From IMG/VR virus record IMGVR_UViG_3300046694_000619: a stretch of 64,000 nucleotides of DNA, one strand, 5' to 3'. This document shows positions 28,127-55,714 of this stretch, piece after piece. Numbering within the stretch: the first letter of the stretch is position 1; each line of letters begins with the position of its first letter. The notes below the pieces were generated by a model, which was not told the DNA's origin, ran no database searches, and saw nothing but the letters and a program-made list of their open reading frames with translations. The stretch comes from a virus. Its lineage: Duplodnaviria; Caudoviricetes. Position numbers and translations under genes: made by a program.

Positions 28127-28202
28127 GCCGGTTTAGCTCAGATGGAAGAGCTACTGTTTTGTAAACAGAGGGTCACGGGTTCGAATCCTGTAGCCGGCAC
28201 CA
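28127..28202 (+). tRNA. tRNA-Thr(TGT)
   Basis: Cloverleaf, loop TT-TGT-AA, CCA. Confidence 0.9.
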
Positions 28203-28213
28203 CCCATCACGCT

Positions 28214-28290
28214 CGGGGCATAGCGCAGTCTGGTAGCGCGTCTGCATGGGGTGCAGAAGGCCGCAGGTTCGAATCCTGCTGTCCCGACCA
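28214..28290 (+). tRNA. tRNA-Pro(GGG)
   Basis: Cloverleaf, loop AT-GGG-GT, CCA. Confidence 0.9.
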
Positions 28291-28300
28291 ACGGTTCAAT

Positions 28301-28376
28301 GCGGGTGTAGCTCAGATGGTAGAGCAGAAGCCTTCCAAGCTTAGTGTCGCGAGTTCGATTCTCGTCGCCCGCTCCA
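28301..28376 (+). tRNA. tRNA-Gly(TCC)
   Basis: Cloverleaf, CT-TCC-AA, U73, CCA. Confidence 0.9.
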
Positions 28377-28507
28377 GTTCCTTGTTGTCGCAGTCATGCG
28401 TTAAATGGCGTCTGCCGGTTGTCCTCTCTCCGGCGCGGTCACTGCGATAAGTGACGTGCTGGCAGGCAAGCTGCAAGCCGTGCTGACGGGAATCAGCGCG
28501 CAACGCT

Positions 28508-28591
28508 GCCCAGGTGGTGAAATGGAAGACACGCTGGTTTCAGAAGCCAGTGGCGAAAGCTGTGAGGGTTCGAGTCCCTCCCTGGGCACCA
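28508..28591 (+). tRNA. tRNA-Leu(CAG)
   Basis: Class II cloverleaf, TT-CAG-AA. Confidence 0.9.
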
Positions 28592-28644
28592 TTAGTACAA
28601 CTTACATGTAGTAGGTCGCAATCACTGCATGTTTTCGCTTCAAC

Positions 28645-28730
28645 GGGGATGTGGCTGAGTGGCCGAAGGCGGCGGACTGTAAATCCGTTCTGTAAAAAGC
28701 GCGATGGTTCGAATCCATCCGTCCCCACCA
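28645..28730 (+). tRNA. tRNA-Tyr(GTA)
   Basis: Class II cloverleaf, CT-GTA-AA. Confidence 0.9.
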
Positions 28731-28745
28731 CGATTTTTTTGCAAT

Positions 28746-28822
28746 GCCTAGGTAGCTCAGCATGGTAGAGCGCCGTCTTGATAAGGCGAGGGTCGCTGGT
28801 TCAAATCCAGCTCTAGGTACCA
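28746..28822 (+). tRNA. tRNA-Ile(GAT)
   Basis: TT-GAT-AA, CCA. Confidence 0.88.
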
Positions 28823-28832
28823 GTTTCACAAT

Positions 28833-28909
28833 TGGCCAGTAGCTCAGTTCGGTAGAGCGCTCCGCTGTTAACGGAAGGGTCACGGGTTCGAAGCCTGTCT
28901 GGCCAGCCA
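28833..28909 (+). tRNA. tRNA-Asn(GTT)
   Basis: CT-GTT-AA, G73, CCA. Confidence 0.88.
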
Positions 28910-28918
28910 ATTTACGAT

Positions 28919-29004
28919 GCACGTGTGGCCGAGCGGTTGAAGGCACTGGGCTGCAAACCCAGCGATGAAACTCCACGCCAGTTCGAATCTGGCCACGTGC
29001 TCCA
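28919..29004 (+). tRNA. tRNA-Cys(GCA) with long variable region
   Basis: CT-GCA-AA, U73, 14-nt variable region. Confidence 0.85.
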
Positions 29005-29031
29005 GTCGCTGTTGCTAGTTGTACGAATAAT

Positions 29032-29117
29032 GCACGCGTAGCCAAGAGGTCGAAGGCACAGGTCCGCAAAACCTACGACGCAAGTCCACGTCAGTTCGAA
29101 TCTGACCGCGTGCTCCA
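29032..29117 (+). tRNA. tRNA-Cys(GCA), C33 variant with variable arm
   Basis: CC-GCA-AA, U73, gac-gcaa-gtc arm. Confidence 0.82.
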
Positions 29118-29140
29118 GTAGTTCCTGAAGTTTGCTTTGC

Positions 29141-29214
29141 TCCGGTGTAGCTCAGTTCGGTAGAGCGCCTGGCTGTTAACCAGGATGTCGGTGGTTCGAA
29201 CCCACTCTCCGGAG
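29141..29214 (+). tRNA. tRNA-Asn(GTT), no encoded CCA
   Basis: CT-GTT-AA, followed by CAA. Confidence 0.85.
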
Positions 29215-29231
29215 CAAAGCAAAGTTTCAAT

Positions 29232-29308
29232 GCTCGGATAGCTCAGTTTGGTAGAGCGCCGGCCCGATAAGCCGTAGGTCGCTGGTTCAAATCCAGCTCC
29301 GAGTACCA
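29232..29308 (+). tRNA. tRNA-Ile(GAT), C33 variant
   Basis: CC-GAT-AA, CCA. Confidence 0.85.
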
Positions 29309-29316
29309 AGTTTTCT

Positions 29317-29392
29317 GCGGGAATAGCTCAGTTGGTAGAGCGCAACCTTGCCAAGGTTGAGGTCGCGAGTTCGAGACTCGTTTCCCGCTCCA
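29317..29392 (+). tRNA. tRNA-Gly(GCC)
   Basis: Canonical proteobacterial-type Gly-GCC sequence. Confidence 0.93.
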
Positions 29393-29403
29393 GGTTTGCC
29401 CTT

Positions 29404-29480
29404 GCAGGGGTAGCTCAGTTGGCTAGAGCATCTGCTTGCCATGCAGAAGGTCGCGAGTTCGAGTCTCGTTCCCTGCTCCA
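29404..29480 (+). tRNA. tRNA-Gly(GCC), divergent copy
   Basis: TT-GCC-AT, U73, CCA. Confidence 0.88.
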
Positions 29481-29488
29481 GTTTCATC

Positions 29489-29586
29489 GCCGAGATAGTC
29501 CGGTCGGTGCCGGTACGAATCCATAAGAGTTGTCGCTTGGTGACCCAGGCGCAGCCCACGCAGTTCGACTCTGCGTCTCGGCTCCA
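29489..29586 (+). ncRNA. Sec/allo-tRNA-like RNA, anticodon unclear
   Basis: GCCGAGA(T)/(G)TCTCGGC acceptor, CGGT D-tetraloop, long variable arm, TTCGACT T-loop, TCCA. Confidence 0.65.
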
Positions 29587-29595
29587 GCTTCATTT

Positions 29596-29672
29596 GCGGT
29601 AGTAGCTCAGCTGGTTAGAGCGCCGGCCTGTCGAGCCGGGGGTCACGGGTTCGAGTCCCGTCTGCCGCGCCA
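29596..29672 (+). tRNA. tRNA-Asp(GTC)
   Basis: CT-GTC-GA, G73, CCA. Confidence 0.9.
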
Positions 29673-29684
29673 GTTTCACCCGAT

Positions 29685-29760
29685 GTTCCGTTGGACTTTT
29701 GGTAAGGTCAGCAGGCTTTCAACCTGCGCAAGCTCGGTTCGAATCCGGCACGGAACTCCA
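29685..29760 (+). tRNA. tRNA-Glu(TTC)
   Basis: CT-TTC-AA, CCA; divergent D arm. Confidence 0.82.
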
Positions 29761-29769
29761 GATTACATT

Positions 29770-29845
29770 GCTCCGTTAACTCAGCGGCCAGAGTGCGTCC
29801 CTGTCCAGGACGAAGCCGAGGGTTCGACTCCCTCACGGGGCGCCA
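29770..29845 (+). tRNA. tRNA-Asp(GTC)
   Basis: CT-GTC-CA, G73, CCA. Confidence 0.88.
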
Positions 29846-29855
29846 GTTTCACAGC

Positions 29856-29931
29856 AGGGGGTAAATCGATTGGAGCAGATACTTGGCTTTGACCCAAGGT
29901 GAGTCGGGTTCGATTCCCACACCCCCTTCCA
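29856..29931 (+). tRNA. tRNA-Gln(TTG), atypical D and T arms
   Basis: CT-TTG-AC, AGGGGGT/ACCCCCT acceptor, CCA. Confidence 0.75.
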
Positions 29932-29943
29932 AAAAATCACAAC

Positions 29944-30019
29944 GTGCGCTTCGTCTAGTGGCCCAGGACCCCGTCTAACAAGGCGGGAGACACAGGTTCG
30001 AATCCTGTAGCGCGCTCCA
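29944..30019 (+). tRNA. Glu-like tRNA body with 6-nt anticodon loop TAACAA
   Basis: TCGTCTAGTGGCCCAGGAC D arm as in tRNA-Glu; CCGTC-TAACAA-GGCGG. Confidence 0.65.
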
Positions 30020-30039
30020 GTAACAACAAAGCACATTGC

Positions 30040-30112
30040 ATGACTGTGGCGCAATTGGCAGCGCAGCGGTCTCCAAAACCGAAGGTTGAGAGTTCGACCC
30101 TCTCCAGTCATG
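30040..30112 (+). tRNA. tRNA-Trp(CCA), no encoded CCA end
   Basis: CT-CCA-AA, followed by CAA. Confidence 0.87.
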
Positions 30113-30131
30113 CAATGTGTTTTCCCCCTGT

Positions 30132-30208
30132 CTGGGCGTAATGTCAGTTGGTAGACGGCCGGCTTTGGAAGCCGGAGGCCGCAGGTTCGAGTCCTGTCGC
30201 CCAGACCA
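30132..30208 (+). tRNA. tRNA-Pro(TGG)
   Basis: TT-TGG-AA, CCA. Confidence 0.87.
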
Positions 30209-30220
30209 AATTTTTTCAAC

Positions 30221-30297
30221 ACTCGGGTCGTCTAGCTGGCCTAGGACACCGCCCTTTCAAGGCGGGCACGCGGGTTCGAATCCCGTCCCGAGTACCA
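30221..30297 (+). tRNA. tRNA-Glu(TTC)
   Basis: CT-TTC-AA, CCA. Confidence 0.9.
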
Positions 30298-30313
30298 AAT
30301 TTCGAGGACAGTC

Positions 30314-30859
30314 ATGTTGACGTGCGTGAATTATAGGCCCGGCTTCGTGGCCAATCCGAATCCGATTTTCGATGCGCTGTGGTCCGAGCTGGACTGGGAG
30401 CGCAGAGGCTCGACGCCCAGGCGTGAGTATTACTGCAACGACGTCGGCGTGCCGTATGTCTATGGCCGCGGCGCCGGCGTACGGGAATACCTGCCCAAGG
30501 CCATGCATCCCGCCCTGGCTGCCCTGAAAGGCGAGACGGAAGCCGCACTGAGCACCAAGTTCGAAGTGGCCTTTCTGAACGGCTACGAGGACGCCCGCGA
30601 CAGCTTGGGCTGGCACGCGGATGACAGCGAGTCGATGGATGACAATCGTCCCATCGCCATCCTGACGCTGGGCGCGGAACGCGAAATCTGGTTCTGCCGC
30701 AACACCGACCGCTCCGACATCACGAAGCTGGTGCTGGGCAACGGCAGCCTGTGCGTCATGGCGCCGGGCATGCAAGATACCCACCTGCACAGAATCCCCA
30801 AGGCGGGGTTCGAGTGCGGCCCGCGTATCAGTATTACATTCAGGGGTTACGTAGCGTAG
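30314..30859 (+). CDS. AlkB-family 2OG-Fe(II) dioxygenase
   Basis: FLNGY.D.RDSLGWHADD, H.IPK, RISITFR. Confidence 0.9.
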   Translation: MLTCVNYRPGFVANPNPIFDALWSELDWERRGSTPRREYYCNDVGVPYVYGRGAGVREYLPKAMHPALAALKGETEAALSTKFEVAFLNGYEDARDSLGWHADDSESMDDNRPIAILTLGAEREIWFCRNTDRSDITKLVLGNGSLCVMAPGMQDTHLHRIPKAGFECGPRISITFRGYVA

Positions 30860-30980
30860 TCCTGAAGGGGTTGCTTCATGCTGCCCTGGCGCCAGGTGTA
30901 GACCATCTGGCGCCGTCTCTACAAGTTGTCGTAGTGCCTATTGCATGGTATATTAAACTCCCCATCATAAGGAGTTTCCC

Positions 30981-31169
30981 ATGAATTACTCGACGGCTCT
31001 GTCGTTTGCTGTTCCGGTCTTGATGCTCATTGCAACCGTGAATCTGGTTGCGTACTGGGCTCGTAACGCAAAGAAGGTAGCTGACGCCCGGCTGCGTGCG
31101 CATTACGATGCGCACCCCGATAAGGCTGAAGCTCGTGCGCTGATGCGCGCAGCAGGCTACAACGTCTGA
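30981..31169 (+). CDS. Small membrane protein
   Basis: AAGGAG RBS, one TM segment. Confidence 0.55.
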   Translation: MNYSTALSFAVPVLMLIATVNLVAYWARNAKKVADARLRAHYDAHPDKAEARALMRAAGYNV

Positions 31170-31227
31170 GCGTAACGCCGGCGTTGTGCTCCGTCCCAGG
31201 TCGGCCAACACCTGGAAAGAACACCTT

Positions 31228-31303
31228 GGGGGTGTAACTCAGTCGGTAGAGTGCCTGACTCTTAATCAGGAAGTCGCGAGTTCGAGCCTCGCCGCCCCCA
31301 CCA
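31228..31303 (+). tRNA. tRNA-Lys(CTT)
   Basis: CT-CTT-AA, CCA. Confidence 0.9.
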
Positions 31304-31311
31304 CGATTACT

Positions 31312-31402
31312 GGAGAGCAAACCTGGCAGGGCTGGGCGCCGATTCGAAATCGGTTGGAGTGGCGAAAGCTGCTTGGGCTTCGAGTGCACCTGCTCTCCGC
31401 CA
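31312..31402 (+). tRNA. tRNA-Ser(CGA), (8/4)-type fold
   Basis: 8-bp acceptor GGAGAGCA/TGCTCTCC, 6-bp D stem, long variable arm, G73. Confidence 0.8.
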
Positions 31403-31408
31403 GACAAT

Positions 31409-31486
31409 AGGACCGTAGCTCAGTTGGACCAGAGCGCCGCGCTACGAACGCGGAGGTCGGGGATTCGAATTCCTCCGGTCCTACCA
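31409..31486 (+). tRNA. tRNA-Arg(ACG)
   Basis: CT-ACG-AA, CCA. Confidence 0.88.
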
Positions 31487-31497
31487 TTTCATTTCTT

Positions 31498-31573
31498 GCC
31501 TCGGTAGCTCAGCTGGTAGAGCACTGCACTGAAGATGCAGGTGTCGCTGGTTCGATTCCAGCTCGAGGCACCA
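31498..31573 (+). tRNA. tRNA-Phe(GAA)
   Basis: CT-GAA-GA, CCA. Confidence 0.9.
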
Positions 31574-31590
31574 CCTTCCGGAGCTTGTCT

Positions 31591-31917
31591 ATGGTCGCGT
31601 ATCCCGTGAACTACACAGACGAGCAGCTTGGAAAAGCCTACGCGGCCGGGATGCTGCGAAAGACCAAGCTTGAGGATGGCCGCTATTACAGAGGCGAATG
31701 TCGAAACGCGAGCGTCGCGCGCTGGTGCGCCGAACTGCAAGCATTCGTGCACTGGACCTTCACGATGGGCGGCTGGCATCTGGACCTCATCCATCATCCC
31801 GACGACGAGAAACGGTATGACGTGTTTCTCGCGTTCGAACGCGTTGAACCTTCCGCAGACGACGTCATCGCTGACGCCGAATACGAAGGGTTCGTCGCGA
31901 TGTATCGCAAACAATGA
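31591..31917 (+). CDS. Hypothetical protein
   Basis: GGAG RBS; GRYYRGECRNASVARW motif. Confidence 0.65.
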   Translation: MVAYPVNYTDEQLGKAYAAGMLRKTKLEDGRYYRGECRNASVARWCAELQAFVHWTFTMGGWHLDLIHHPDDEKRYDVFLAFERVEPSADDVIADAEYEGFVAMYRKQ

Positions 31918-31928
31918 GACTGCAGCGG

Positions 31929-32005
31929 GGTGGCCGTCGCCAAGTGGTTAAGGCCCGCGGCTGTGACCCGCGCATGCATGGGTTCAAATCCCATCGGTCA
32001 CCCCA
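31929..32005 (+). tRNA. tRNA-His(GTG)
   Basis: G-1:C73, CT-GTG-AC, CCA. Confidence 0.9.
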
Positions 32006-32068
32006 CTGCAGTCTCGGACAAAACGTTTTTTCAGTCAGGTTTTTCAATCAACCAACAGGAGCTTCGAT

Positions 32069-32320
32069 ATGCATCGAAAACCGAAGCTGGCGCCGCGTAA
32101 CCCGTTCGTGGCGTCCAGTCTGTTTCGCAAAGCGGGTACGCATGACAAGCCGCACAAGGCCACGCGCCGTGCGGACAAGATGGACTTACGGCGTGTAGCT
32201 CAACTGGCAGAGCAAAGGGCTTTTACCCCTGAGGTTCTGGGTTCAACTCCCAGTGCGCCGACCATCCGAGACATCAAACACATACCGATGTGCAGCAGCA
32301 TTGCGCAGCTATCTGTTTGA
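32069..32320 (+). CDS. Small basic protein whose ORF reads through tRNA-Lys
   Basis: AGGAG RBS; 40 K/R/H-rich codons precede the tRNA 5' end. Confidence 0.55.
   Translation: MHRKPKLAPRNPFVASSLFRKAGTHDKPHKATRRADKMDLRRVAQLAEQRAFTPEVLGSTPSAPTIRDIKHIPMCSSIAQLSV
32189..32264 (+). tRNA. tRNA-Lys(TTT)
   Basis: CT-TTT-AC, CCA. Confidence 0.85.
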
Positions 32321-32348
32321 GGTTTCTCGTGTCGCAAGACACGCGATA

Positions 32349-32484
32349 GGTTTTGAATCGGCGGCGTGGATGGACACGCAGCAATCCGGACAAAGGCGAA
32401 TACGACTAGCCAAGCCGGATTGTGTGGAAGTTGGCCAGTCGTGCTAGCACCAGCGGGTGTCGAAACCTGCACGTTTCAAAACCA
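32349..32484 (+). ncRNA. tRNA-like structured RNA (GTG-GATGGA-CAC class)
   Basis: ggttttgaa/ttcaaaacc closing stem, D-like and T-like hairpins, ends ACCA. Confidence 0.55.
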
Positions 32485-32487
32485 CAT

Positions 32488-32561
32488 GGGGGTGTAGCTC
32501 TAAGGTAGAGCGCCTGCTTTGCAAGCAGAGGGTCCGAATTCGATTTTCGGCGCCTCCACCA
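32488..32561 (+). tRNA. tRNA-Ala(TGC)
   Basis: G3:U70, TT-TGC-AA, CCA. Confidence 0.87.
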
Positions 32562-32569
32562 ATCTTCCT

Positions 32570-32699
32570 GGTGACGTAGCTCAGTCGGTAGAGCGCGGAA
32601 TCCTGGGCCGGCTTCGCGTGGCGCTCCTTCGCTGCGCGGTGACTAATCGGCTCTTGGTTTGTTCCGAGGTCGGATGTTCGAACCATCCCGTCATCGCCA
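32570..32699 (+). ncRNA. tRNA-like RNA with ~60-nt hairpin replacing the anticodon loop
   Basis: Canonical acceptor, D and T arms, GCCA end. Confidence 0.75.
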
Positions 32700-32711
32700 A
32701 ACACGTTGTAT

Positions 32712-32802
32712 GGAGAGTAAACCTGGCAGGGCCGGGCGCCGGTTGGAAGCCGGTCGGAGCGGCGAAAGCTGCTTGGGCTTCGAGTGCACCTACTCTCCGC
32801 CA
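32712..32802 (+). tRNA. tRNA-Ser(GGA), (8/4)-type fold
   Basis: GGAGAGTA/TACTCTCC, TT-GGA-AG. Confidence 0.8.
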
Positions 32803-32811
32803 TTCATTTTT

Positions 32812-32888
32812 GCTTCGGTAGCTCAGTCTGGTAGAGCGCTGCGTTGAAGGCGCAGGCGTCGTTGGTTCAATTCCAACCCGAAGCACCA
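32812..32888 (+). tRNA. tRNA-Phe(GAA)
   Basis: TT-GAA-GG, CCA. Confidence 0.87.
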
Positions 32889-32909
32889 CATACAGGAGGT
32901 TTTCTTCTC

Positions 32910-33107
32910 ATGGGAACGGTAAGCCTTCACGGCCTGCGTGTGCTACGCCTTGAAAGGGCGTTGCGTGCGAGAGGCGTAAAAGATGTGAAGCTGGTGGTCA
33001 ACCCATCCGCTCACGTATCAAGAGACGCACTCACAGAGAGCGTTTGCCGGGTGCTCGAGGCCTACCTTGCGGGGAAGGTCACGGCGCTACCGCGCGGCAG
33101 CTTCTGA
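32910..33107 (+). CDS. Small hypothetical protein
   Basis: AGGAGG RBS. Confidence 0.6.
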   Translation: MGTVSLHGLRVLRLERALRARGVKDVKLVVNPSAHVSRDALTESVCRVLEAYLAGKVTALPRGSF

Positions 33108-33314
33108 GTGCGTTTCTTGAGGTCATAAACCGGGGGCAAGATAGGGCCATCGCGCGAACCCGTCACGCGTCGAGTAGCTGGCGTAAGCAGCTAATACTTC
33201 TTCGAAACTCCTTCGGGGTGTGCTCCGCTCATGCGAGTCTGTGCACTCCAAAGCAGTTTTGATTGTCCGGCCGTCTTCTCTGGCAGCCAGGGCTGTGCGC
33301 TTGCGCACGACCAT

Positions 33315-33391
33315 CTCCGTGTAGCTCAGTCTGATAGAGCGCCTCGTTCGGGACGAGGAGGTCGCAGGTTTGAACCCTGTCTCGGAGACCA
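33315..33391 (+). tRNA. tRNA-Pro(CGG)
   Basis: TT-CGG-GA, CCA. Confidence 0.85.
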
Positions 33392-33460
33392 TTTTTGAGG
33401 GAAGCGTCGCGTGTCGACGCATGCGGCGCCCCAGCGCGTAATCTGGGGCAACGATTTCTT

Positions 33461-33550
33461 GGAGGGTGAACCAGACAGGGTTTGGGCTCGCCTGCTAAGC
33501 GAGGCGTTTGGCGAAAGCTGAATTCGGTTCGATACCGACTCCCTCCTCCA
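33461..33550 (+). tRNA. tRNA-Ser(GCT), (8/4)-type fold
   Basis: GGAGGGTG/CTCCCTCC (one mismatch), 4-bp T stem TCGG/CCGA, CT-GCT-AA. Confidence 0.8.
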
Positions 33551-33559
33551 GGTTTCAAT

Positions 33560-33634
33560 GCTCGTGTAGCGCAGTGGTAGCGCACCGCTTTCACACAGCG
33601 GGGGTCGCTGGTTCGATGCCAGCCTCGAGCACCA
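33560..33634 (+). tRNA. tRNA-Val(CAC)
   Basis: TT-CAC-AC, CCA. Confidence 0.88.
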
Positions 33635-33642
33635 GTTCAATT

Positions 33643-34383
33643 TCACCTCAGGAGCGACATGACGGATTTGTCAGCCCAGAGTTGCGCACACAAGGCTGCG
33701 CGGTCGGGGCGGACCGTGGAGTCCGACGGTGCCGCAGATTCGATTCGCTCCCGCAGCGCTGCCATTCGTTCGCGCACCAGTGCTTCGTCGGCAGGAACGT
33801 AGCGACCCTCAGCATCCGCCAGGGGCAGCAGGGCAATGGGCTCATCACCAAACAGGTCGGCAGCGATGTCCGCGACAAAGCGCTCGTTGCCGTCGTCAAC
33901 CTCGACCCAATAGTGAGCGTGGCAGTTGCCCGCAGCATCGAAAAAGCCGGTGACTTCGCCGTCACCGGCACGAATGCAGGAGCTCATCTTCGGCAGGGAT
34001 TTCTTGACCTGCAGGTCGGCGAGATAGGCGGCGAACGCACAGCTCCCAGCGACCTGACCCAAGAATCCAGATTCGCACGCGCGGTCGAGAGCGCCGATGG
34101 TCTTTGTCAGCGCCGCGTGCAACGCTATCGAACTCGCCTGGCGCCCTTCGCGAATGGTCGCGCCCGCGGCATCAATCTGATTGCCAATCTCGCGGGAAAC
34201 CTCTCGCGCGTCGAACGAATCCTTGGCAGCGAATTTCACCTTGACTGTCAAATCCTCGCCTACCGGGTACCAGCGCTCTTGAAATCGGATACGCGCGCCT
34301 GCATAGAGCGGGGCGCGGACGTGTGCGGTAAAAAGCCACTCTCCGTCAACGCGTGTGGTTGTCGAGGTTACGAAGTACGACAT
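33643..34383 (-). CDS. Hypothetical protein (possible Cys-His-Asp papain-like fold)
   Basis: AGGAG RBS; GSC...HYWVE...ADIAADLFG. Confidence 0.6.
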   Translation of the reverse strand: MSYFVTSTTTRVDGEWLFTAHVRAPLYAGARIRFQERWYPVGEDLTVKVKFAAKDSFDAREVSREIGNQIDAAGATIREGRQASSIALHAALTKTIGALDRACESGFLGQVAGSCAFAAYLADLQVKKSLPKMSSCIRAGDGEVTGFFDAAGNCHAHYWVEVDDGNERFVADIAADLFGDEPIALLPLADAEGRYVPADEALVRERMAALRERIESAAPSDSTVRPDRAALCAQLWADKSVMSLLR

Positions 34384-34456
34384 GATTTCTCCTGAAACAT
34401 GTCCGTAGTATACAAAGTAATTTGCGTAGCGACAACTACGCAGAGAGTTGATGAAT

Positions 34457-34532
34457 GGGTACCTAGCTCAGTTGGAAGAGCATCGCCTCGACACGGCGAA
34501 GGTCGGCGGTTCGAACCCGTCGGTACCTACCA
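34457..34532 (+). tRNA. tRNA-Val(GAC), C33 variant
   Basis: TC-GAC-AC, CCA. Confidence 0.87.
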
Positions 34533-34540
34533 GTTTTGAT

Positions 34541-34619: not shown

Positions 34620-34626
34620 GCTTTAC

Positions 34627-49375: not shown

Positions 49376-49382
49376 GTTTTTG

Positions 49383-49567
49383 CAGTGGGAAGGAGCAGAC
49401 CGCAGCCTATGCGTGCGGGATGACAGGCCCCGCTCGGACGCATGAAGTTGGGTGCGGAGAGTCGACGGACTGAGCATAAACGGAGTCGAGGGTAAGGCCG
49501 CGGACGTGTGATGTAGGGCACGAGAGCGGTTCCGAGGTTACGACACCGGCCCACAGCAGATTCACCA
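49383..49567 (+). ncRNA. Unknown structured RNA (AGGAGCAGA class, copy 2)
   Basis: Shares three ordered motifs with 42963-43171. Confidence 0.5.
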
Positions 49568-49606
49568 TTTTCAAGAGCGGCACTTGTGCGGCTCGAGTAG
49601 TTCAAT

Positions 49607-49684
49607 GGCGGGGTAGCTCAGCCTGGTAGAGCGACAGCCTCATAAGCTGAATGTCGTTGGTTCGAATCCAACCCACCGCAACCA
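49607..49684 (+). tRNA. tRNA(CAT), Met/Ile2 or variant initiator
   Basis: CT-CAT-AA, 1:72 mismatch, bulged acceptor. Confidence 0.8.
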
Positions 49685-49689
49685 GTTAC

Positions 49690-49958
49690 CCGGGTGTCCT
49701 GGCCCGTAATTTACCAGGCTCGGCACTCCTGCCGGCCTACCGTTGGCTATGGAGCGGAACCTGCGGTATATCGGGGGCAACCTCGGTAAGCCATCCCGAA
49801 AGGGATTCCGACAGGAGTAACGCAGGCAGCTTGGTGTGAGCTGAAACGCAAAGGATAGCGTATCTGTTGAGCCTCCCGGGGAGGCTCTTCGTGAGCGCCG
49901 CACATCTGACTGGTAAAGCGCCCACGTGCCAGCTGTTGGTAGCAGCGTGGCACACCGA
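49690..49958 (+). ncRNA. Unknown structured RNA
   Basis: Closing pairs tttaccag/ctggtaaa, several GNRA hairpins, no credible ORF. Confidence 0.45.
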
Positions 49959-49997
49959 TTTTCAGGAGTGGCTTTCGAGCGACTCCAGCAGCTCGAT

Positions 49998-50075
49998 AGC
50001 GGGGTAGAGCAGTCCGGTAGCTCGTCGGCCTCATAAGCCGAAGGTCATGGGTTCAAATCCCATCCGCCGCAACCA
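49998..50075 (+). tRNA. Initiator-like tRNA(CAT) variant
   Basis: fMet-type D arm GAGCAGTCCGGTAGCTC, 1:72 mismatch, CT-CAT-AA. Confidence 0.82.
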
Positions 50076-50266
50076 AACGTAGGTCGTTGTGAATGCAACG
50101 ATTGAAAGACAATCCGGCCACGCTTGCCATCTTCACAAGGGATGGCGTGCCTTAAGAGGCAGCGCATCTGAAATCGCGGATTTACGCGTGAACCCCAGGG
50201 ACGCCTGGGTCTACGGAACAAGGTGGTCGCAAGACCATCGGCGAGGGGATAACCTTTGCCACCCTT

Positions 50267-50342
<76 letters not shown>

Positions 50343-50675
50343 AATTACTCCGGCCTGGCAGTGTCACCGCATAAGAGGACAGGTGTTCCTCTGGACGATT
50401 TTCGTGCTGCCAGCCCCGAGTGATTTCAGCAGGAAATGCACGGGCGACGTGCAAGAAAGGACGGAGTGTCCTGGCAGTGAGAACTGACCAGCTGTTGCGA
50501 TGAGAGGTCGCAAGACTTTTTCGGTTCGAAAGTAGCATCGGGCCGTCCAAAACCGAAATGCCGGGTTCGCATCCGGCTCCTGTCGATGTCACGCGAATTG
50601 ACTGCTCCAAAACGTGGGACCCGGTCTCCATGGATGTGGCGAAGTATCGGGCTTTGAGCAGTCTTTTCGCAGGAT

Positions 50676-50752
50676 GGTGATGTAGCTCAGCTGGTCAGAG
50701 CGTTGCACTCATAATGCAGAGGTCGTCGGTTCGAGCCCGACCATCACTACCA
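50676..50752 (+). tRNA. Elongator tRNA-Met(CAT)
   Basis: CT-CAT-AA, paired acceptor, CCA. Confidence 0.87.
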
Positions 50753-50760
50753 GTTTCAAT

Positions 50761-50848
50761 GCGGTGGACCTTCGGGTCTAACGTCAATCAGCGGCCTAGG
50801 ATAACGCCTGATTGTCGAGCGCCGGCGTAATGGCTGGACACCGCTCCA
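50761..50848 (+). ncRNA. Small CCA-ended tRNA-shaped RNA
   Basis: GCGGTG/CACCGC-T-CCA with three internal hairpins, one a cUUCGg. Confidence 0.5.
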
Positions 50849-50855
50849 TATCCGA

Positions 50856-50881
50856 GAGAGCCCGCTACATGCGGGCTTTCC
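50856..50881 (+). terminator. Terminator-like hairpin ending the RNA block
   Basis: gagagcccgc-tacat-gcgggctttc. Confidence 0.5.
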
Positions 50882-50896
50882 CATATCAGCAACGCC

Positions 50897-51355
50897 ATGC
50901 ATTCGACGACCGATAAACGACCACTGAACGTGCGTGAGTTGCGCACCAAGCTGAAGATGCTGCGGCAGTATCAGGCGCGCAGCTGCCGGTTCGAGACGGT
51001 GTCATACTACTGCCCGAGGCATCCTGTATTCGAGGACTTCTTCCGGCTGCTGGCTGAGCATGACTGGTTCAGTGACGACTACCGATGGTGCCGTGCACAG
51101 TACCAAGGGGACAGGGCCGCGTACGAAAATGCCATCGACGAAGCCAACGCATACTGGAACCCGAAGGCGGTCTTGTGCCGACAGCCGACGTACAAAGAAG
51201 CGCTGCAGTGTGCCCGGTTCATTTACAGGTGCGGCCGCATCATGGAAGGCTCGCCTTGGCTGCGGGCATTGTCGATGGGTGTCGTGCAGTGGATTATGGA
51301 TGGCATCATCGAGGGTCCTGCTGATTGCGGGCAGCACGCGCAAGCCGAGCAATAG
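50897..51355 (+). CDS. Hypothetical protein
   Basis: 152-aa ORF. Confidence 0.55.
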   Translation: MHSTTDKRPLNVRELRTKLKMLRQYQARSCRFETVSYYCPRHPVFEDFFRLLAEHDWFSDDYRWCRAQYQGDRAAYENAIDEANAYWNPKAVLCRQPTYKEALQCARFIYRCGRIMEGSPWLRALSMGVVQWIMDGIIEGPADCGQHAQAEQ

Positions 51356-51410
51356 TGGCTTCGTAGACTGTCGGTCGTCGGCAACAACGATGCTTAACAG
51401 GCTAAGCATT

Positions 51411-51680
51411 TTAGCTCCATCGTTGTAGACCGCGTTCAGGTGGCGGCCTTGATTTGCTGTGCTGCGAGCGGCGCCATCTTTGTTTGGACTGCCAGTCCTC
51501 TGCGCGAAGCACGTATTCCCCGTCTTCGCGGGCTTCGGCTTCCGAGCCGAATCCTTCCTCGCTGAAGGCGACGACTTTGATGCCTGTGCCAGTCGACCTC
51601 TCGATGGTAATGCCCCAGTGCCACTCGCCTTCCTGCTCGAAGACGTGAAGCGTCGGGTCCGACGACGCGAGCGCGGCCAT
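51411..51680 (-). CDS. Hypothetical protein
   Basis: AAAGGAG RBS; WHWGITIER...VVAFSEEGF. Confidence 0.6.
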   Translation of the reverse strand: MAALASSDPTLHVFEQEGEWHWGITIERSTGTGIKVVAFSEEGFGSEAEAREDGEYVLRAEDWQSKQRWRRSQHSKSRPPPERGLQRWS

Positions 51681-52358
51681 GGTCAACTCCTTTCAATAGC
51701 GGTTCCTCCGTGAGCCGTCCGCATGGCAACGGATGGTGCACGAATTGTCAGTGCTAGCAGTGGCCTGATACCGCTCCTGTGGCGTTGTTGCTAGGTGCGC
51801 GTAGACCTCGACGACTGCTGTATGTGCGCGGAGCTGGAGAACGCCTGTGCAGGACACGGCGCCGGCGGCGATTCAAGGGCGTCGTCGGCCTCCAGAACGA
51901 CAACTTCGAGGAATTCAAGCGGTACCCGGTCAAGCCGTTCTGGCCGTCGTTCACCATCCGGCGGGAATTCCACGCAAGCATGAGATGCCTTCGGGGTATG
52001 CGCTACGACTTGCCCGATACGCCCTCGAAACCGGCTTGCTGAATGGTCATCGAGCGCGCTCAGGCGGGAAGCGGTAAGTCTTACGAACATGCCTTTCAGG
52101 CGTTGCCTCATATGTACCTCCTCACTTAAAAGCATTTGTTCAGAGGATAGAAAAGGGTCGTGTGAAGCGCAAGGAAAAGAAGGCGCAGCGGTACACAATA
52201 CGGATGCGAGCGTAAAGGACGAATTTTTTACAACCTAGCAACATTGAAGGAGCTTCGAGATGGTTCTCAGGCAGGCATCGGTCATACGACCGGCCGTCAG
52301 CGCTTAAGAGTGCAGGAGGGTCCTGCACAGCTGGCGGTCGACACTCTTCGGAGTCTGT

Positions 52359-52586
52359 ATGACCAAGCCCATGACCCGCGCCCTTCGGCGTCATCATATT
52401 GCGCGCCTCAAGCGCGCCCGCCGGTTCTACTTCGGTAAGGACCTGGCGAAAGACCCGGTCGACCTCGGTATTACCGTGACGACCGCCGCGCGCTGTTCGT
52501 GCGCAATGTGCGGAAATCCTCGTCGCATTTTCCTCGAGCTCACGATGCAGGAACGTCGTCTGTTTCAGGACATCGGTGAAGATTGA
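52359..52586 (+). CDS. Small Arg-rich protein with CSC..CGNPRR motif
   Basis: GGAG RBS; CSCAMCGNPRR...LTMQERR. Confidence 0.7.
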   Translation: MTKPMTRALRRHHIARLKRARRFYFGKDLAKDPVDLGITVTTAARCSCAMCGNPRRIFLELTMQERRLFQDIGED

Positions 52587-52726
52587 GAGCCGAAACGCAT
52601 ATTCTCAACGCGCTGTTGCGAATATGCGTTAAAAACACTATACTGTGTTTGTGTTGGTGGCGGGAGCCGGACAGCAACGGCCCGCCGCGACGGCGAAGTA
52701 TCAAGCCCTGCTGATGCAGTACATTA

Positions 52727-52801
52727 GCCCTTGTAGCTCAGTGGCAGAGCACTCCCTTGGTAAGGGAGAGGCCGACAGTTCAATCCTGTCCAGGGGCACC
52801 A
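52727..52801 (+). tRNA. tRNA-Thr(GGT)
   Basis: TT-GGT-AA, CCA. Confidence 0.92.
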
Positions 52802-52815
52802 GAATTTCGATTCAT

Positions 52816-52891
52816 GCCGGTGTAGCTCAGTTGGTAGAGCAACGCACTCGTAACGCGTAGGTCGGAGGTTCGAATCCTCTCTCCGGCACCA
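52816..52891 (+). tRNA. tRNA-Thr(CGT)
   Basis: CT-CGT-AA, CCA. Confidence 0.92.
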
Positions 52892-52910
52892 GATTTCCTA
52901 CATTTTCATC

Positions 52911-53315
52911 ATGACTGCAGACACGACGACGGCGGTGTACGCGCTTCGAGAGCAGGTCACCGACCGCACCGCGGGCTATGCCGTACGGCATCCGCAGTCG
53001 GGCGCGCTCGTGTCCAATCGCAGTTTCGATAACGGCTATTGCGTCCAGCCGCTGACGTTCCCGCGCGACGAGGCTGAGGCCCATCTGGCGGAGCTCACAG
53101 CGGAAACCCGCGTCACCTGGATGCTCGAGCTGGCACCCGGTCCGTGTCCCGCATGCAAGCGCGTCATCTGGGCTGACGACCTTGACTTCTGCTACCCGCT
53201 GAACCGGGAACGCACACTCTACCGCGCCGGCTGCAACAAGCATGACTTCGGTTGCGGGCTAGAGGTCGAAAGCGATTCTTTCGAAGGTGCCATCAGGCGC
53301 TGGAACGGGCAGTAG
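52911..53315 (+). CDS. Hypothetical zinc-ribbon protein (Lar-like C-terminus)
   Basis: PCPAC...C....GCG...AIRRWN. Confidence 0.6.
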   Translation: MTADTTTAVYALREQVTDRTAGYAVRHPQSGALVSNRSFDNGYCVQPLTFPRDEAEAHLAELTAETRVTWMLELAPGPCPACKRVIWADDLDFCYPLNRERTLYRAGCNKHDFGCGLEVESDSFEGAIRRWNGQ

Positions 53316-53335
53316 CTCAGCTCATCTGTCTTCAC

Positions 53336-53411
53336 GCGCCTGTAGTTCAACGGATAGAACAGTGGTCTTCTACACCATAGGTTGGGGGTTCAAATCCCTC
53401 CGGGCGCGCCA
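53336..53411 (+). tRNA. tRNA-Arg(TCT)
   Basis: CT-TCT-AC, CCA. Confidence 0.9.
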
Positions 53412-53476
53412 CAATTGCCAGTTTTAAGCGTTTTGTGCTATAATATCGACACTTTAGGTTAGCTTGGAGCATTATT

Positions 53477-54112
53477 ATGTCGGTATTGTCCCTTGCTCGA
53501 TTCCAGGAATCAGTCACCATTCTCGGCGGCGGCAACGCTCAAGACTTACACTCGCGGCTGCTCACTGCCTGGGCCGAACCGGCGCGTCGTTACCATACCC
53601 AACAGCACCTCGAAGAAGGCCTCACCCTGGCCGACATCTGGGGCGAGCAGCTCTCGCGGCACGAGAAGGCTGAGCTTGACCTGGGATTCTGGCTTCATGA
53701 CGCCATTCTCGACCCACGCGGCACTGAGAACGAGCGTAAGAGTGCTGATATGGCCCGCGCAGAGCTCGCCAAGCTCGGAATCCACGAGCAAACACCGGAA
53801 CGCATCGCCGCGCTGGTCATGGCCACGGCACACGGCACCCCGGTGCCCGCGGGCGACTACGTGGTGGACCTGCTGCTCGATATTGACCTCGCTATCATCG
53901 GCGCGCCAGCCGCACGCTTTGCGCAATACGAGGCACAGGTTCGGGATGAGTACAGCTTCGTCGACGATGCGGCCTATCAGGTCGGCCGCGGCAAGGTGAT
54001 GGGGCATTTCCGCGCGATGGCGTTCAACGAACCGTCCACGCTATACCGTACAGTCTACGGTAGCACGTTGCTTCCGCAGGCGCGCGTCAACCTCGCCAAG
54101 TACCATCACTAA
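53477..54112 (+). CDS. HD-superfamily metal-dependent phosphohydrolase
   Basis: RRYHTQQHL, WLHDAI, NERKSA, LLDIDLAI. Confidence 0.85.
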   Translation: MSVLSLARFQESVTILGGGNAQDLHSRLLTAWAEPARRYHTQQHLEEGLTLADIWGEQLSRHEKAELDLGFWLHDAILDPRGTENERKSADMARAELAKLGIHEQTPERIAALVMATAHGTPVPAGDYVVDLLLDIDLAIIGAPAARFAQYEAQVRDEYSFVDDAAYQVGRGKVMGHFRAMAFNEPSTLYRTVYGSTLLPQARVNLAKYHH

Positions 54113-54291
54113 TGCTCATCCTTTACCGACAACACGGCCGCGTGCGCATCGTGCGCACACCGCAAGCGGAGACTGGCGAAAAGTTGTGTCCGCCGGATGA
54201 CGCTTACGGGATGCCGTATTCCCAACTGCCGCCGGAACAGAAGGCGCTCCTTGCCGCTGAAGAGCGCGAACGGAACGCAAAAGAACAATAA

Positions 54292-54798
54292 ATGGTAAAT
54301 CTCGACGACTGCTACATCAATCTCGACCTGGATGGTGTCATGGTCGACTTCTACGGGGAAACCTCCCGCATTCTGGGCGCGAACTACAAGAGCCTGCCTT
54401 CCGCGCAAGCGTGGAGTGTGCTCGAGAAGATTCCGCATTTCTTCGAAAAACTGCCGATGCTCCCCGATGCACTCGAACTCTGGAAGGGACTCGAGGGTCG
54501 TGGGCGTCCGTCTCGTGTCCTGACCGCGGTTCCGAAGCCAACGGGCCTGCTCAATACGGCGCCCGGCGACAAACGCATCTGGGTGCGCGAGAACATCAGC
54601 CAGACCGTCCCGGTGCTGATTGCGCCGCACGGCGCTGCGAAGGCGGAGTGGGCCCGGCCGGGCCACATCCTCATCGACGACCTTCAGCGCAACATCGACG
54701 CCTGGGTCGCCGCTGGCGGCATTGGCATCCTGCATCGCAGCGCGCGTGAGACACTCGAGCAGCTCGATGAGCACGCGCCGCTGCTGCAGGCGGCCTGA
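54292..54798 (+). CDS. 5'(3')-deoxyribonucleotidase-like HAD protein
   Basis: LDLDGVMVDF, K..W, ILIDD...N...W...GG.GI.H. Confidence 0.8.
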   Translation: MVNLDDCYINLDLDGVMVDFYGETSRILGANYKSLPSAQAWSVLEKIPHFFEKLPMLPDALELWKGLEGRGRPSRVLTAVPKPTGLLNTAPGDKRIWVRENISQTVPVLIAPHGAAKAEWARPGHILIDDLQRNIDAWVAAGGIGILHRSARETLEQLDEHAPLLQAA

Positions 54799-54816
54799 GC
54801 ATCTGACCCTACAACG

Positions 54817-54848
54817 AAAAAAGCCCTCACACCGGAGGGCTTTTGTTT
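54817..54848. terminator. Bidirectional intrinsic terminator
   Basis: aaaaagccctc-acaccg-gagggcttttgttt. Confidence 0.75.
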
Positions 54849-55212
54849 AGTGAAGGCAGGGCGGTTGAACATACCGTCCCCGGTTAAGCGTCTTGTGGTG
54901 GTCGTCGTGCAGGTTTCCCCACACGGTCTTCACCCTCCCATCTACCATCACCACCCATACCAGGTCGAGACGCGCCGTGACCTGGTGCCGAATGACTCGT
55001 TTGAGTATTCGACCCGTCATGGCGCACTCAACTTCCACGATTTCGCTCGAAGCAACGACAAGCTTCGCGGAAAGGTGGCCGGTCAGGTCGCCGTAGCGGT
55101 CCTCGTGTGCGGCCAAAAGTGCATGGCGGGTGTAGTGCAGCGACAAGGCTCCAGGGGTCTGGAACAGCCGCACCGGCGCATAAACATCCTTATGAAAAAG
55201 CATAGTTTGCAT
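54847..55212 (-). CDS. Hypothetical protein
   Basis: YTRHA...DRYG...VKTVW.N..DDHH.TL..Y. Confidence 0.6.
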   Translation of the reverse strand: MQTMLFHKDVYAPVRLFQTPGALSLHYTRHALLAAHEDRYGDLTGHLSAKLVVASSEIVEVECAMTGRILKRVIRHQVTARLDLVWVVMVDGRVKTVWGNLHDDHHKTLNRGRYVQPPCLH

Positions 55213-55407
55213 GATGTACCTCAAAATGGATTTGGCACTCACTGACACGTACACTCGAACAAGGGGATACCCAGCGGTTTCCTCGAATTCGTATAGCTCA
55301 GAGAGTGCCCATCGCAGAGGTAACAACCGCGCAGGTCTGCCACATTTCGGATATTGCATTCAGAGGGGTCTAACGCGTTAATGCTGTTTTATGATATAAT
55401 GCAACTT

Positions 55408-55714
55408 CAGTGAGTCAGACTCATGGGCGGTAGGCTTAGAAGCAGCCAGCGGCGTGAAAACCCGCGTACCGATAATGAGTGGTGATAGGCGCGTGTGACC
55501 GTGGAACTGTTCACCCTGATGAACACCACAGACCCGTGAGATTCGCGGGCACTGGAAGCAGGGCGAGGATGGCAGATACCGAAGGACTGATGCTGCATGG
55601 ACGTGGAGCGGCATCGGAGAAGGCAAGCCATCAGGAAAAAAGGTTGCGAGGGCGTTGTCCCCTGAAATGACCAATAACCTTTGGCGTGAAAGCACACCTG
55701 GGTTTGACCTGCTG
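55408..55714 (+). ncRNA. 23S rRNA GTPase-associated centre (H43/H44) mimic RNA
   Basis: GGCTTAGAAGCAGCCA (55433-55448), ATAATGAGT, GGCGTGAAAGCACAC (55683-55697), closing stem; TGATATAAT promoter element upstream. Confidence 0.7.

Follow-up and report, generated by a model that had tools for sequence, protein, structure and literature searches.

We describe a large island of transfer RNA (tRNA) genes in the IMG/VR record IMGVR_UViG_3300046694_000619, analysed as one stretch of 64,000 nucleotides (nt) that we call the window. The island is, with little room for doubt, a tRNA array unit on a megaplasmid of the Variovorax/Methylibium type. As the best explanation overall, we lean towards a self-contained second tRNA pool whose first unit is gated by an attenuator. 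Such arrays are common on plasmids and phages, and their function is debated, with codon supply, independence from the host and anti-defence all under discussion. The window offers two testable clues: a conserved leader attenuator, through which expression of the array would depend on how well translation runs, and anticodon-loop variants that have been kept across diverged arrays.

ARAGORN finds 52 tRNA genes between 28127 and 53411, all on the + strand and together covering 20/20 amino acids. In a sensitive search of the region, 49 of the 52 score at or above the gathering threshold of Rfam RF00005, in good agreement with the first-pass annotation, which had read 52 tRNAs for all 20 amino acids on one strand. 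Below the Rfam cut-off are an odd gene of 98 nt at 29489, a tRNA-Ser(GCU) of the 8/4 fold at 33461 and a gene at 35086 (26.5 bits against a 29-bit cut-off). The CCA end is encoded by 48/52 genes. There are 39 distinct anticodons, which under simple wobble rules leave unread the codons CUA and AUA only (59/61 sense codons read); for AUA, one of the four CAU tRNAs is a possible reader. Density is highest in 28127–36639 (41 genes, 4.8 per kb) and is 2.06 per kb over all 52 genes in 28127–53411. A tRNA array unit has been defined as at least 20 tRNA genes at no fewer than 2 per kb (Tran et al. 2016, PMC4758250), and the island qualifies in both gene number and density. The array is laid out in four parts:

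28127–30297, + strand: dense block of 22 tRNA genes with spacers of ~10 nt (ARAGORN, Rfam)
31228–36639, + strand: second part, 19 tRNA genes among structured spacers and small open reading frames (ORFs)
42260–42957, + strand: tRNA-Val(UAC) and tRNA-Ala(UGC) (ARAGORN)
49056–53411, + strand: final part, with Ser, four CAU tRNAs (one initiator-like), Ala, Thr, Thr and Arg among structured spacers

The dense block includes a Cys gene (29032) and an Ile gene (29232) with C33, an Asp gene with a pyrimidine at position 37 (29770), the odd gene of 98 nt (29489) and, at 29944, a gene whose anticodon loop has 8 nt. A minus-strand ORF at 33643–34383 breaks up the second part, and a block of protein genes at 36713–41755 (TerC, DUF2863 and a 986-residue DUF2726 protein) precedes the Val and Ala tRNAs.

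Upstream of the first tRNA gene, the window has the anatomy of an attenuator: a promoter, a short ORF, a terminator, and an alternative hairpin built from the 3′ end of the ORF and an arm of the terminator. The elements of the leader are as follows:

27529–27556, + strand: near-consensus sigma-70 promoter (TTGACA, 16-nt spacer, TATACT, extended −10 TG; 11/12 matches)
27633–27809, + strand: leader ORF of 58 codons, containing all 20 amino acids
27841–27878, + strand: intrinsic terminator, stem 27841–27847/27861–27867 followed by a U run
27880–28027, + strand: conserved structured leader segment recognised by alignment, last hairpin 28003–28021

The promoter is invariant in a three-way alignment with Achromobacter anxifer and the related element L019, and no other promoter-like site occurs on the + strand between it and the first tRNA. 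The terminator is stable (−22.1 kcal/mol, z −4.4). Ten bases at 27843–27852, overlapping its 5′ arm, are exactly complementary to 27785–27794, an antiterminator 5′ strand that lies in the last codons of the leader ORF. The hairpin formed by this pairing (−35.9 kcal/mol, z −5.6) excludes the terminator, and both alternative hairpins recur in A. anxifer. A leader ORF also stands at the equivalent position in A. anxifer (58 codons, 20 kinds of amino acid), in L019 (59 codons, 20 kinds) and in Methylibium (60 codons from a GTG start, 19 kinds). Four elements, drawn from three lineages, keep the ORF together with the antiterminator and terminator, and in each the stop codon comes 12–15 nt past the antiterminator strand. 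In Methylibium, a matched one-base change is present on both antiterminator strands, and the terminator has a z of −3.8. The leader peptides themselves are poorly conserved in sequence. The chance of finding all 20 kinds in 58 residues, given the window DNA or its proteins, is 3–5%, and we regard the near-complete amino-acid coverage of the leader as suggestive, not decisive.

The segment that follows the terminator (27880–28027, ~150 nt) has 20-nt blocks invariant with A. anxifer and L019 and compensatory changes in its last hairpin. It matches no Rfam family and may be a second regulatory RNA element. Against 401 Burkholderiales genomes the leader DNA had A. anxifer as its sole match, and side matches of 32 nt led nowhere. 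The region upstream of the array in another related element, L020, has no comparable leader ORF and terminator. Scans of viral contigs for the leader motifs gave four palindromic matches without tRNAs, which were discarded, and no match to the second conserved block.

From these structures we infer the following induction logic, to which, as a stress-gated spare-pool mechanism, we give a confidence that falls a little short of even. The island would supply a second tRNA pool, reading 59/61 sense codons and evolved apart from the tRNAs of the host. A strong promoter would drive the first unit, with its ~32 tRNAs and an ALKBH3-like AlkB, through the leader-peptide attenuator. When translation runs smoothly to the leader stop codon, the ribosome would cover the antiterminator strand, the terminator would form and the unit would stay off. 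Should the ribosome lag anywhere in the ~58-codon leader, the antiterminator would form instead and the spare tRNAs would be made. Because the leader has nearly every amino acid, such a lag could come from the depletion, cleavage or lack of charging of any tRNA. GOLLD, an RNA encoded farther along the island, and the later tRNAs would be expressed from their own promoters, and conserved loop changes may make some of the spare tRNAs poor substrates for anticodon nucleases.

The design has precedents. Leader attenuators of the trp/his type, and those that sense antibiotics, likewise combine a promoter, a short ORF and mutually exclusive hairpins, and also place the antiterminator strand within reach of a ribosome at the leader stop codon. 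The leader in the window differs from them in having no run of a single regulatory codon and nearly all amino acids, and in that the regulated genes are for tRNAs and not for biosynthesis or resistance. An operon of 26 tRNA genes on a plasmid of Anabaena PCC 7120, the trn operon, is silent until translational stress and is controlled by the repressor TrcR (PMC10272220). It shares with the window the extra, plasmid-borne set of tRNAs and the logic, here proposed, of staying off until translation is stressed. The repressor there is a protein, whereas for the window we propose a cis-acting leader peptide and terminator.

If the tRNAs are to serve as a separate pool, they should be distinguishable from those of the host, and here the 54 chromosomal tRNAs of A. 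anxifer were taken as the host-type control. Array tRNAs are ~75% identical (median) to chromosomal tRNAs with the same anticodon, and none in the A. anxifer array is 95% or more identical to a chromosomal tRNA, so the array was not copied recently from the genes of the host. All of the chromosomal tRNAs (54/54) have U33 and a purine at position 37. This rule is broken by 6/50 tRNAs in the window and 4/53 in the A. anxifer array (10/103 against 0/54; Fisher p = 0.016). Specific exceptions recur beside a normal copy: a C32-C33 tRNA-Ile(GAU) in the window, A. anxifer and L020, and a pyrimidine-37 tRNA-Asp(GUC) in the window, L017, L018 and L020. Variants of Pro and Cys with C33 recur too. The AlkB proteins of these elements are only 64–68% identical, which argues that the loop variants have been retained for a long time.

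Phage tRNAs are known to escape anticodon nucleases through changes in the loop (van den Berg et al. 2023, PMC10264068), and tRNAs that allow escape from retron and PARIS systems have also been described (PMC11555353, PMC11464382). The pattern of loop variants in the arrays resembles that of such nuclease-escaping phage tRNAs: in both cases tRNAs on a mobile element duplicate host isoacceptors with an altered anticodon loop, in the window for a subset only and as judged against A. anxifer. The carrier there is a lytic phage and here a plasmid. By analogy, the variant loops may make the spare tRNAs poor anticodon-nuclease substrates, an idea that we hold tentatively and, taken on its own, rate as unlikely. 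The earlier proposal that the island replaces translation RNAs is plausible in light of the near-complete decoding set, the divergence from host-type tRNAs and the conservation of the variant loops.

The same gene set might instead be a supplement of codons or gene dosage, boosting tRNA supply for a large, gene-rich plasmid of lower G+C in high-G+C or diverse hosts, with no particular link to stress or to nucleases. The Variovorax plasmids have 62.5% G+C against 67.2% for the chromosome, and enhanced expression was proposed by the authors who described them (PMC7313664); the window is at ~60%, and its set has tRNAs for A/U-ending codons (UAA, UUU, UCU, UGU, UAC). Arrays of Acidithiobacillus borne on integrative and conjugative elements have been explained likewise (PMC4758250). 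However, the 39 anticodons duplicate plentiful host tRNAs, just as the tRNAs of the Variovorax plasmid are almost all redundant with the chromosome (PMC7313664), and a terminator-gated leader speaks against constitutive supply. The conserved variants lacking U33 or having a pyrimidine at 37 would moreover be poor decoders, which is unexpected under selection for dosage. We therefore consider simple supplementation rather unlikely and return to the second, attenuator-gated pool.

Protein genes lie in the first unit and at the far end of the island. The first-pass annotation had listed AlkB, HD and HAD nucleotidase genes with YqeY just downstream, and all four are present, the HD assignment resting on a PHROG match and a motif seen by eye:

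30314–30859, + strand: AlkB-family Fe(II)/2-oxoglutarate dioxygenase (Pfam 2OG-FeII_Oxy_2, 9e-16; PHROG 21963, 6e-66)
53477–54112, + strand: HD-type phosphohydrolase-like protein (PHROG 19425 ‘phosphohydrolase’, 4e-15; H..HD motif by eye)
54292–54798, + strand: 5′(3′)-deoxyribonucleotidase of the HAD superfamily (PHROG 2643, 1e-26; weak Pfam NT5C)
56700–57146, + strand: YqeY/GatB-C-terminal-like protein (Pfam YqeY, 7.5e-23)

The AlkB protein has intact catalytic motifs (HxD..H and R..R), and its closest solved structures are those of human ALKBH3 and ALKBH2 (~5e-12), with E. coli AlkB absent from the matches. ALKBH3 acts on single-stranded nucleic acids, including 1-methyladenosine (m1A) and 3-methylcytidine (m3C) in tRNA. 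In A. anxifer and Methylibium, and at nine further loci on eight metagenomic and IMG/VR contigs, a homologue of this AlkB is likewise found inside a tRNA array or next to one. Because the enzyme is ALKBH3-like and is placed recurrently inside tRNA arrays, a role in tRNA demethylation is a reasonable guess. The suggestion that the island repairs translation RNAs may hold in this sense of demethylation, given the resemblance to ALKBH3 and ALKBH2, and is not supported for nuclease cuts. Neither Pnkp/Hen1 nor a CCA-adding enzyme was seen among the ORFs scanned, nor was an RNA ligase, and repair of nuclease damage is unsupported because such genes are missing from that set. The HD-type protein gave no Pfam or PDB match; an HD-domain gene also stands beside AlkB in the Methylibium array. 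PADLOC returned nothing meaningful for ten island proteins without a family, and searches of the family-less ORFs with Pfam (to E 1) and NCBIfam added nothing further.

Toward its distal end the island encodes a GOLLD RNA, as had been noticed at the outset, with tRNA genes on both sides:

47893–48787, + strand: GOLLD RNA of ~895 nt (RF02032 and homology)
47487–47514, + strand: second near-consensus promoter, upstream of GOLLD, with 11/12 matches, an extended −10 and the same hexamers as at 27529

The Rfam match is above the cut-off (154.6 bits against 150) and spans 48317–48786, model positions 1–416 of 416, with an embedded tRNA-like module at 48384–48448. The variable 5′ domain (47893–48316) is homologous to A. 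anxifer and L020, and because this homology extends ~420 nt 5′ of the Rfam match we set the length at ~895 nt, in keeping with the variable 5′ domain for which GOLLD is known. The GOLLD of the A. anxifer array scores 165.3 bits and includes the 5′ domain. In a soil metatranscriptome, a 905-nt contig at depth 28 covers 47893–48728 at 97.7% identity and starts exactly where the homology starts, and 14 kb of protein genes neighbouring GOLLD had no coverage in the same library. This is a hint, not proof, that the GOLLD of a close relative is an abundant RNA in soil.

The function of GOLLD is not known. It is typically phage-borne, its cage-forming structure has been solved, and it is known within tRNA arrays of mycobacteria (PMC12286853); the cage is an assembly of 14 copies (Kretsch et al. 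2025). Mycobacterial tRNA array units with GOLLD have been described (Morgado et al. 2020, as cited in PMC12286853; Behra et al. 2019, PMC6582537). As summarised there, they share with the window some 30–40 tRNA genes, GOLLD inside the array, a pseudo-tRNA inside GOLLD, carriage by plasmids or phages and horizontal acquisition, and some have an HNH endonuclease nearby. They differ in belonging to Actinobacteria, not Betaproteobacteria, and in the type of replicon, and neither AlkB nor a leader attenuator is reported for them.

Alongside the canonical genes, relaxed and intron-mode ARAGORN scans and folding reveal ~10 further tRNA-shaped genes, the same number of aberrant tRNA-like genes as first noted. 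These and other unusual genes of the array are:

31312–31402 (CGA), 32712–32802 (GGA) and 44106–44196 (UGA), + strand: tRNA-Ser genes of the 8/4 fold, 91 nt (relaxed ARAGORN)
33461–33550, + strand: 8/4 tRNA-Ser(GCU)
32570–32699, + strand: intact tRNA body that has its acceptor, D and T arms and G73-CCA, but a hairpin of ~57 nt where the anticodon loop should be (ARAGORN intron mode, folding)
42738–42856, + strand: similar tRNA body with an insert in the anticodon arm
29944 and 35086, + strand: genes with an 8-nt anticodon loop
29489–29586, + strand: odd gene of 98 nt (ARAGORN, below the Rfam cut-off)
32349–32484, 43167–43434 and 48842–49049: RNAs closed by an acceptor-like stem

The 8/4 tRNA-Ser genes form a complete CGA/GGA/UGA/GCU isoacceptor set next to one canonical tRNA-Ser. 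In the ARAGORN structures they have an 8-bp acceptor, a 4-bp T stem, a long variable arm and G73, and the eighth acceptor pair covaries (A-U and G-C) in 10 homologues from the window, L017–L019 and A. anxifer. The 8/4-like Ser copy of Methylibium scores highest as a tRNA-Sec. These features, the Ser anticodons and the setting are those of the published class of (8/4) tRNA-Ser or allo-tRNAs, known from clusters of tRNA genes on mobile elements (Mukai et al. 2016, PMC5389517). The window differs in carrying the full isoacceptor set on a megaplasmid beside a single canonical tRNA-Ser. The gene at 32570–32699 is 87% conserved in L017, a close metagenomic relative, where the copy is recognised by Rfam as a tRNA at 51 bits; the anticodon-arm inserts here and at 42738–42856 measure 47–57 nt. 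It is tempting to see decoys in the tRNA bodies with a replaced anticodon arm and in the tRNA-Glu-derived gene at 29944, a speculation made on grounds of shape.

Taken as a whole, the island could be an emergency translation kit of a clade of Burkholderiales conjugative megaplasmids, in which a pan-amino-acid sensor of general tRNA supply releases an ALKBH3-like tRNA demethylase and spare tRNAs that are partly hardened against anticodon nucleases (C33, Y37), with GOLLD and the anticodon-arm-replaced RNAs alongside. We consider this fullest version doubtful. Were it true, neither a cis-acting pan-amino-acid attenuator nor a regulated, plasmid-borne tRNA reserve against ribotoxins would have a precedent. 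Should the attenuator work as proposed, it would explain when such arrays are used and would offer an easy genetic test of the anti-ribotoxin hypothesis; otherwise the locus simply adds one more example to a class already described. Two culturable bacteria carry close relatives, A. anxifer LMG 26857 and Methylibium petroleiphilum PM1.

Several observations weigh against an attenuator-gated, stress-responsive pool. The attenuator gates the first unit only (~32 default-ARAGORN tRNA genes, a few tRNA-like genes and AlkB), up to the minus-strand gene at 33643–34383, and the rest has strong promoter-like sites of its own at 34717–34745, 47487 and 53415. The first-pass claim that the island is inducible has indirect support, limited to this first unit behind its promoter, conserved leader ORF, antiterminator and terminator. 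The Methylibium leader has no Asp, and its antiterminator folds no better than shuffled sequences (z −1.5). The all-20 statistic draws on ~3 independent lineages. No comparable leader ORF and terminator lies upstream of the Variovorax array, so leader control is clade-specific. The scanned ORFs revealed neither an anticodon nuclease nor an RNA ligase, nor any further gene for the repair of cleavage. The loop-variant test is modest, with p = 0.056 when all arrays are pooled; its control genome is a stand-in for the host of the window, and the variants are a minority (~10%) that could be decaying copies. Finally, the RNA library, compared with 36500–56400, covers only GOLLD and short conserved tRNA pieces. 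These pieces have foreign flanks, come from other organisms and have no bearing on expression of the array tRNAs.

The carrier is most likely a conjugative, plasmid-like large element, and its host a soil betaproteobacterium, one of the rhizosphere Burkholderiales. Exact copies of the window AlkB with the same flanking tRNAs occur on short contigs in public metagenome runs, and island DNA is detected in at least 18 rhizosphere runs. The first-pass annotation had called the array plasmid-borne and listed traD, parC/parE and thyA on the replicon, all of which are found by Pfam in the flanks of the array:

24229–26064, + strand: TraD/TrwB-type conjugative coupling protein (Pfam TrwB_AAD_bind, 1.3e-109)
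8725–11163: ParC-like protein
14001–16088: ParE-like protein
61986–63044: ThyA

Homology bears out the plasmid assignment. The window TraD is 70% identical to its A. anxifer homologue, which also lies directly upstream of a tRNA array, and 54% identical to TraD of a Variovorax megaplasmid; AlkB is 71% identical to that of Methylibium PM1. Searches of plasmid and phage collections for near-identical DNA matched single conserved tRNAs only. Genes for plasmid replication and partition and an F-type mating-pair apparatus are not in the 64-kb window and are found in relatives.

A huge phage or phage-plasmid could also carry such a locus as a takeover kit, its tRNAs, GOLLD and nucleotide enzymes sustaining late-infection translation as the RNAs of the host are broken down. 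AlkB, the deoxyribonucleotidase, the phosphohydrolase and one small ORF do match phage protein families, AlkB homologues occur on IMG/VR contigs of 95–580 kb, some with tRNA clusters, and the replicon has ThyA, topoisomerase and thioredoxin, as jumbo phages do, besides the usually phage-borne GOLLD (PMC12286853). Yet no capsid, portal, terminase or tail family was matched among ~50 window ORFs scanned. TraD is present, the A. anxifer contig has TraU with no HK97 capsid gene found, and the relatives known from Methylibium and Variovorax are isolated plasmids that carry F-type transfer genes. The missing virion families and the plasmid relatives make a plasmid the better reading despite much phage-like gene content, and a phage takeover kit is improbable.

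The closest relative is a 487-kb contig of A. anxifer LMG 26857, on which ParE (73%), TraD (70%), the leader, 55 one-strand tRNAs, AlkB (68%), a permuted transfer-messenger RNA (tmRNA), GOLLD and ThyA (52%) follow one another in this order. The contig looks like a megaplasmid because it has TraU, lacks a detected HK97 capsid gene and carries every one of its tRNAs inside the array. Of the 48 tRNAs on an 801-kb Variovorax plasmid, ~42 stand in a single array, and pSRS16-1, pPBL-H6-1 and pWDL1-1 of Variovorax have been published as ‘tRNA-carrying megaplasmids’ whose tRNAs serve every amino acid (Ozturk et al. 2020, PMC7313664). The 599-kb megaplasmid RPME01 of M. petroleiphilum PM1 is typed as conjugative (MPF_F), and its array of 27 tRNAs encloses the AlkB, HD and HNH genes and includes an 8/4-like Ser and a long-arm Cys. 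The 2007 genome paper on PM1 reportedly mentioned an unusual tRNA island on the plasmid.

The window and these megaplasmids have in common Burkholderiales hosts, replicons of hundreds of kb, F-type transfer genes (in the window, TraD only), related TraD (54%) and AlkB (59–71%), and HD and AlkB in or near the array. With Variovorax the window shares a one-strand array for 20 amino acids, and with Methylibium the leader ORF and terminator. The related coupling protein, AlkB, HD and one-strand all-amino-acid array are hallmarks of the tRNA-carrying conjugative megaplasmids of Burkholderiales, and all are present in the window. Variovorax differs in having no leader attenuator and in that its TraD lies far from the array. 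No GOLLD was detected near the Methylibium array, and the Variovorax plasmid gave no GOLLD candidate in a first-look search in which control genomes gave no signal either. The array in the window is larger than those of Variovorax and Methylibium and richer in non-canonical tRNA-like genes. The kind of array is already described, as are GOLLD in tRNA arrays, the 8/4 tRNA-Ser, stress-induced plasmid tRNA operons and nuclease-evading tRNAs. What could be new is the conserved leader attenuator with its near pan-amino-acid ORF and the long retention of paired canonical and variant tRNAs.

Beyond the tRNAs, ~11.8 kb of island spacers hold no known genes, neither tRNA nor obvious ORF. Many fold well below dinucleotide shuffles, more strongly on the + strand (z −4 to −9). 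For most of the first-half spacers L017 has a homologue, and the two differ mainly in unpaired columns, weak evidence as it comes from two sequences. In two-sequence RNAalifold comparisons the count ‘broken = 0’ arises by construction, and only the skew of differences towards unpaired columns is used here. The spacers are probably structured RNAs.

The opposite view would be neutral accretion, a recombination-prone pile of tRNAs hitch-hiking on a megaplasmid with odd genes and spacers as pseudogenes and debris. Gene order is very different among relatives, the CCA end is missing from some genes and the anticodon loop of others has 8 nt, no two relatives share the anticodon loop of the tRNA-Glu-derived gene, and literature quoted in PMC7313664 describes the plasmid arrays of Anabaena and Acidithiobacillus as dispensable. 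Against this, the stems are intact in genes of which 49/52 pass the Rfam cut-off, specific variants persist across elements with such diverged AlkB proteins, spacers are much more stably folded than shuffled sequences, show strand asymmetry and differ from L017 away from paired columns, and the dedicated, conserved leader speaks for selection, all of which makes accretion alone very unlikely.

The rRNA-like (ribosomal RNA-like) RNAs reported at first reduce to a single exact match of 16 nt, at 55433–55448, to helix 43 of 23S rRNA, with no Rfam hit and no homologue in relatives. The match may be due to chance, with an expectation of ~0.001 for the spacer and, by rough extrapolation, ~0.1 for the whole window. 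A mimic of the 23S GTPase-associated centre was considered and rejected: the helix 44 half is unmatched, Rfam gives no large-subunit (LSU) hit, and 54799–55789 has no homologue in any relative. The hairpin copy sits in an ORF-poor, structured stretch (55408–55714) that occurs in none of the relatives.

Further observations concern individual RNA genes. The gene at 29944–30019 has a tRNA-Glu-like body with its 8-nt anticodon loop and lies between Gln and Trp. Its positional counterparts differ in the loop from relative to relative (UUC with a pyrimidine at 37 in L017, a four-base ‘ggag’ in L018), the body being conserved and the anticodon fast-changing. For the odd gene at 29489, a YrlA/Y RNA (RF02553) was considered and rejected; Rfam gives sub-threshold matches only (24–30 bits against 69), which lie elsewhere across adjacent tRNAs and not here. 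Two tRNA-Cys(GCA) genes of 86 nt (28919–29004 and 29032–29117) have a long variable arm on a class-II, tRNA-Tyr-like body with U73, and one of them has C33. Bacterial tRNA-Cys is normally short-armed. Similar long-arm Cys genes occur in L018, in L021 and in the plasmid array of Methylibium (87 nt). The permuted two-piece tmRNA of the A. anxifer array (contig 5, 20262–20597; RF04321, 92 bits) is distinct from the tmRNA of the host.

Among the remaining protein genes, four co-oriented ORFs at 44167–47409 (313, 345, 191 and 204 residues) stand directly upstream of the GOLLD promoter. Searches of Pfam, NCBIfam, PHROG and PADLOC gave nothing above noise for these ORFs, and they have no homologue in the A. 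anxifer, Variovorax and Methylibium loci that were fetched. Two small ORFs, at 41921–42115 (64 residues) and 52359–52586 (75 residues), have no family match and have homologues inside the A. anxifer array (40–43% identity). Large, secreted-looking proteins with He_PIG/ASH-type Ig repeats are encoded at 880–3036 and 21113–23617, one with a fibrinogen-like C-terminal domain, and a gene related to these Ig-repeat proteins lies near TraD in A. anxifer. A tellurite-resistance-type cluster occupies the minus strand at 3614–8479 (vWA-TerF-like, TerD and TerC), and a second TerC gene is found within the tRNA island itself, at 36713–37390.

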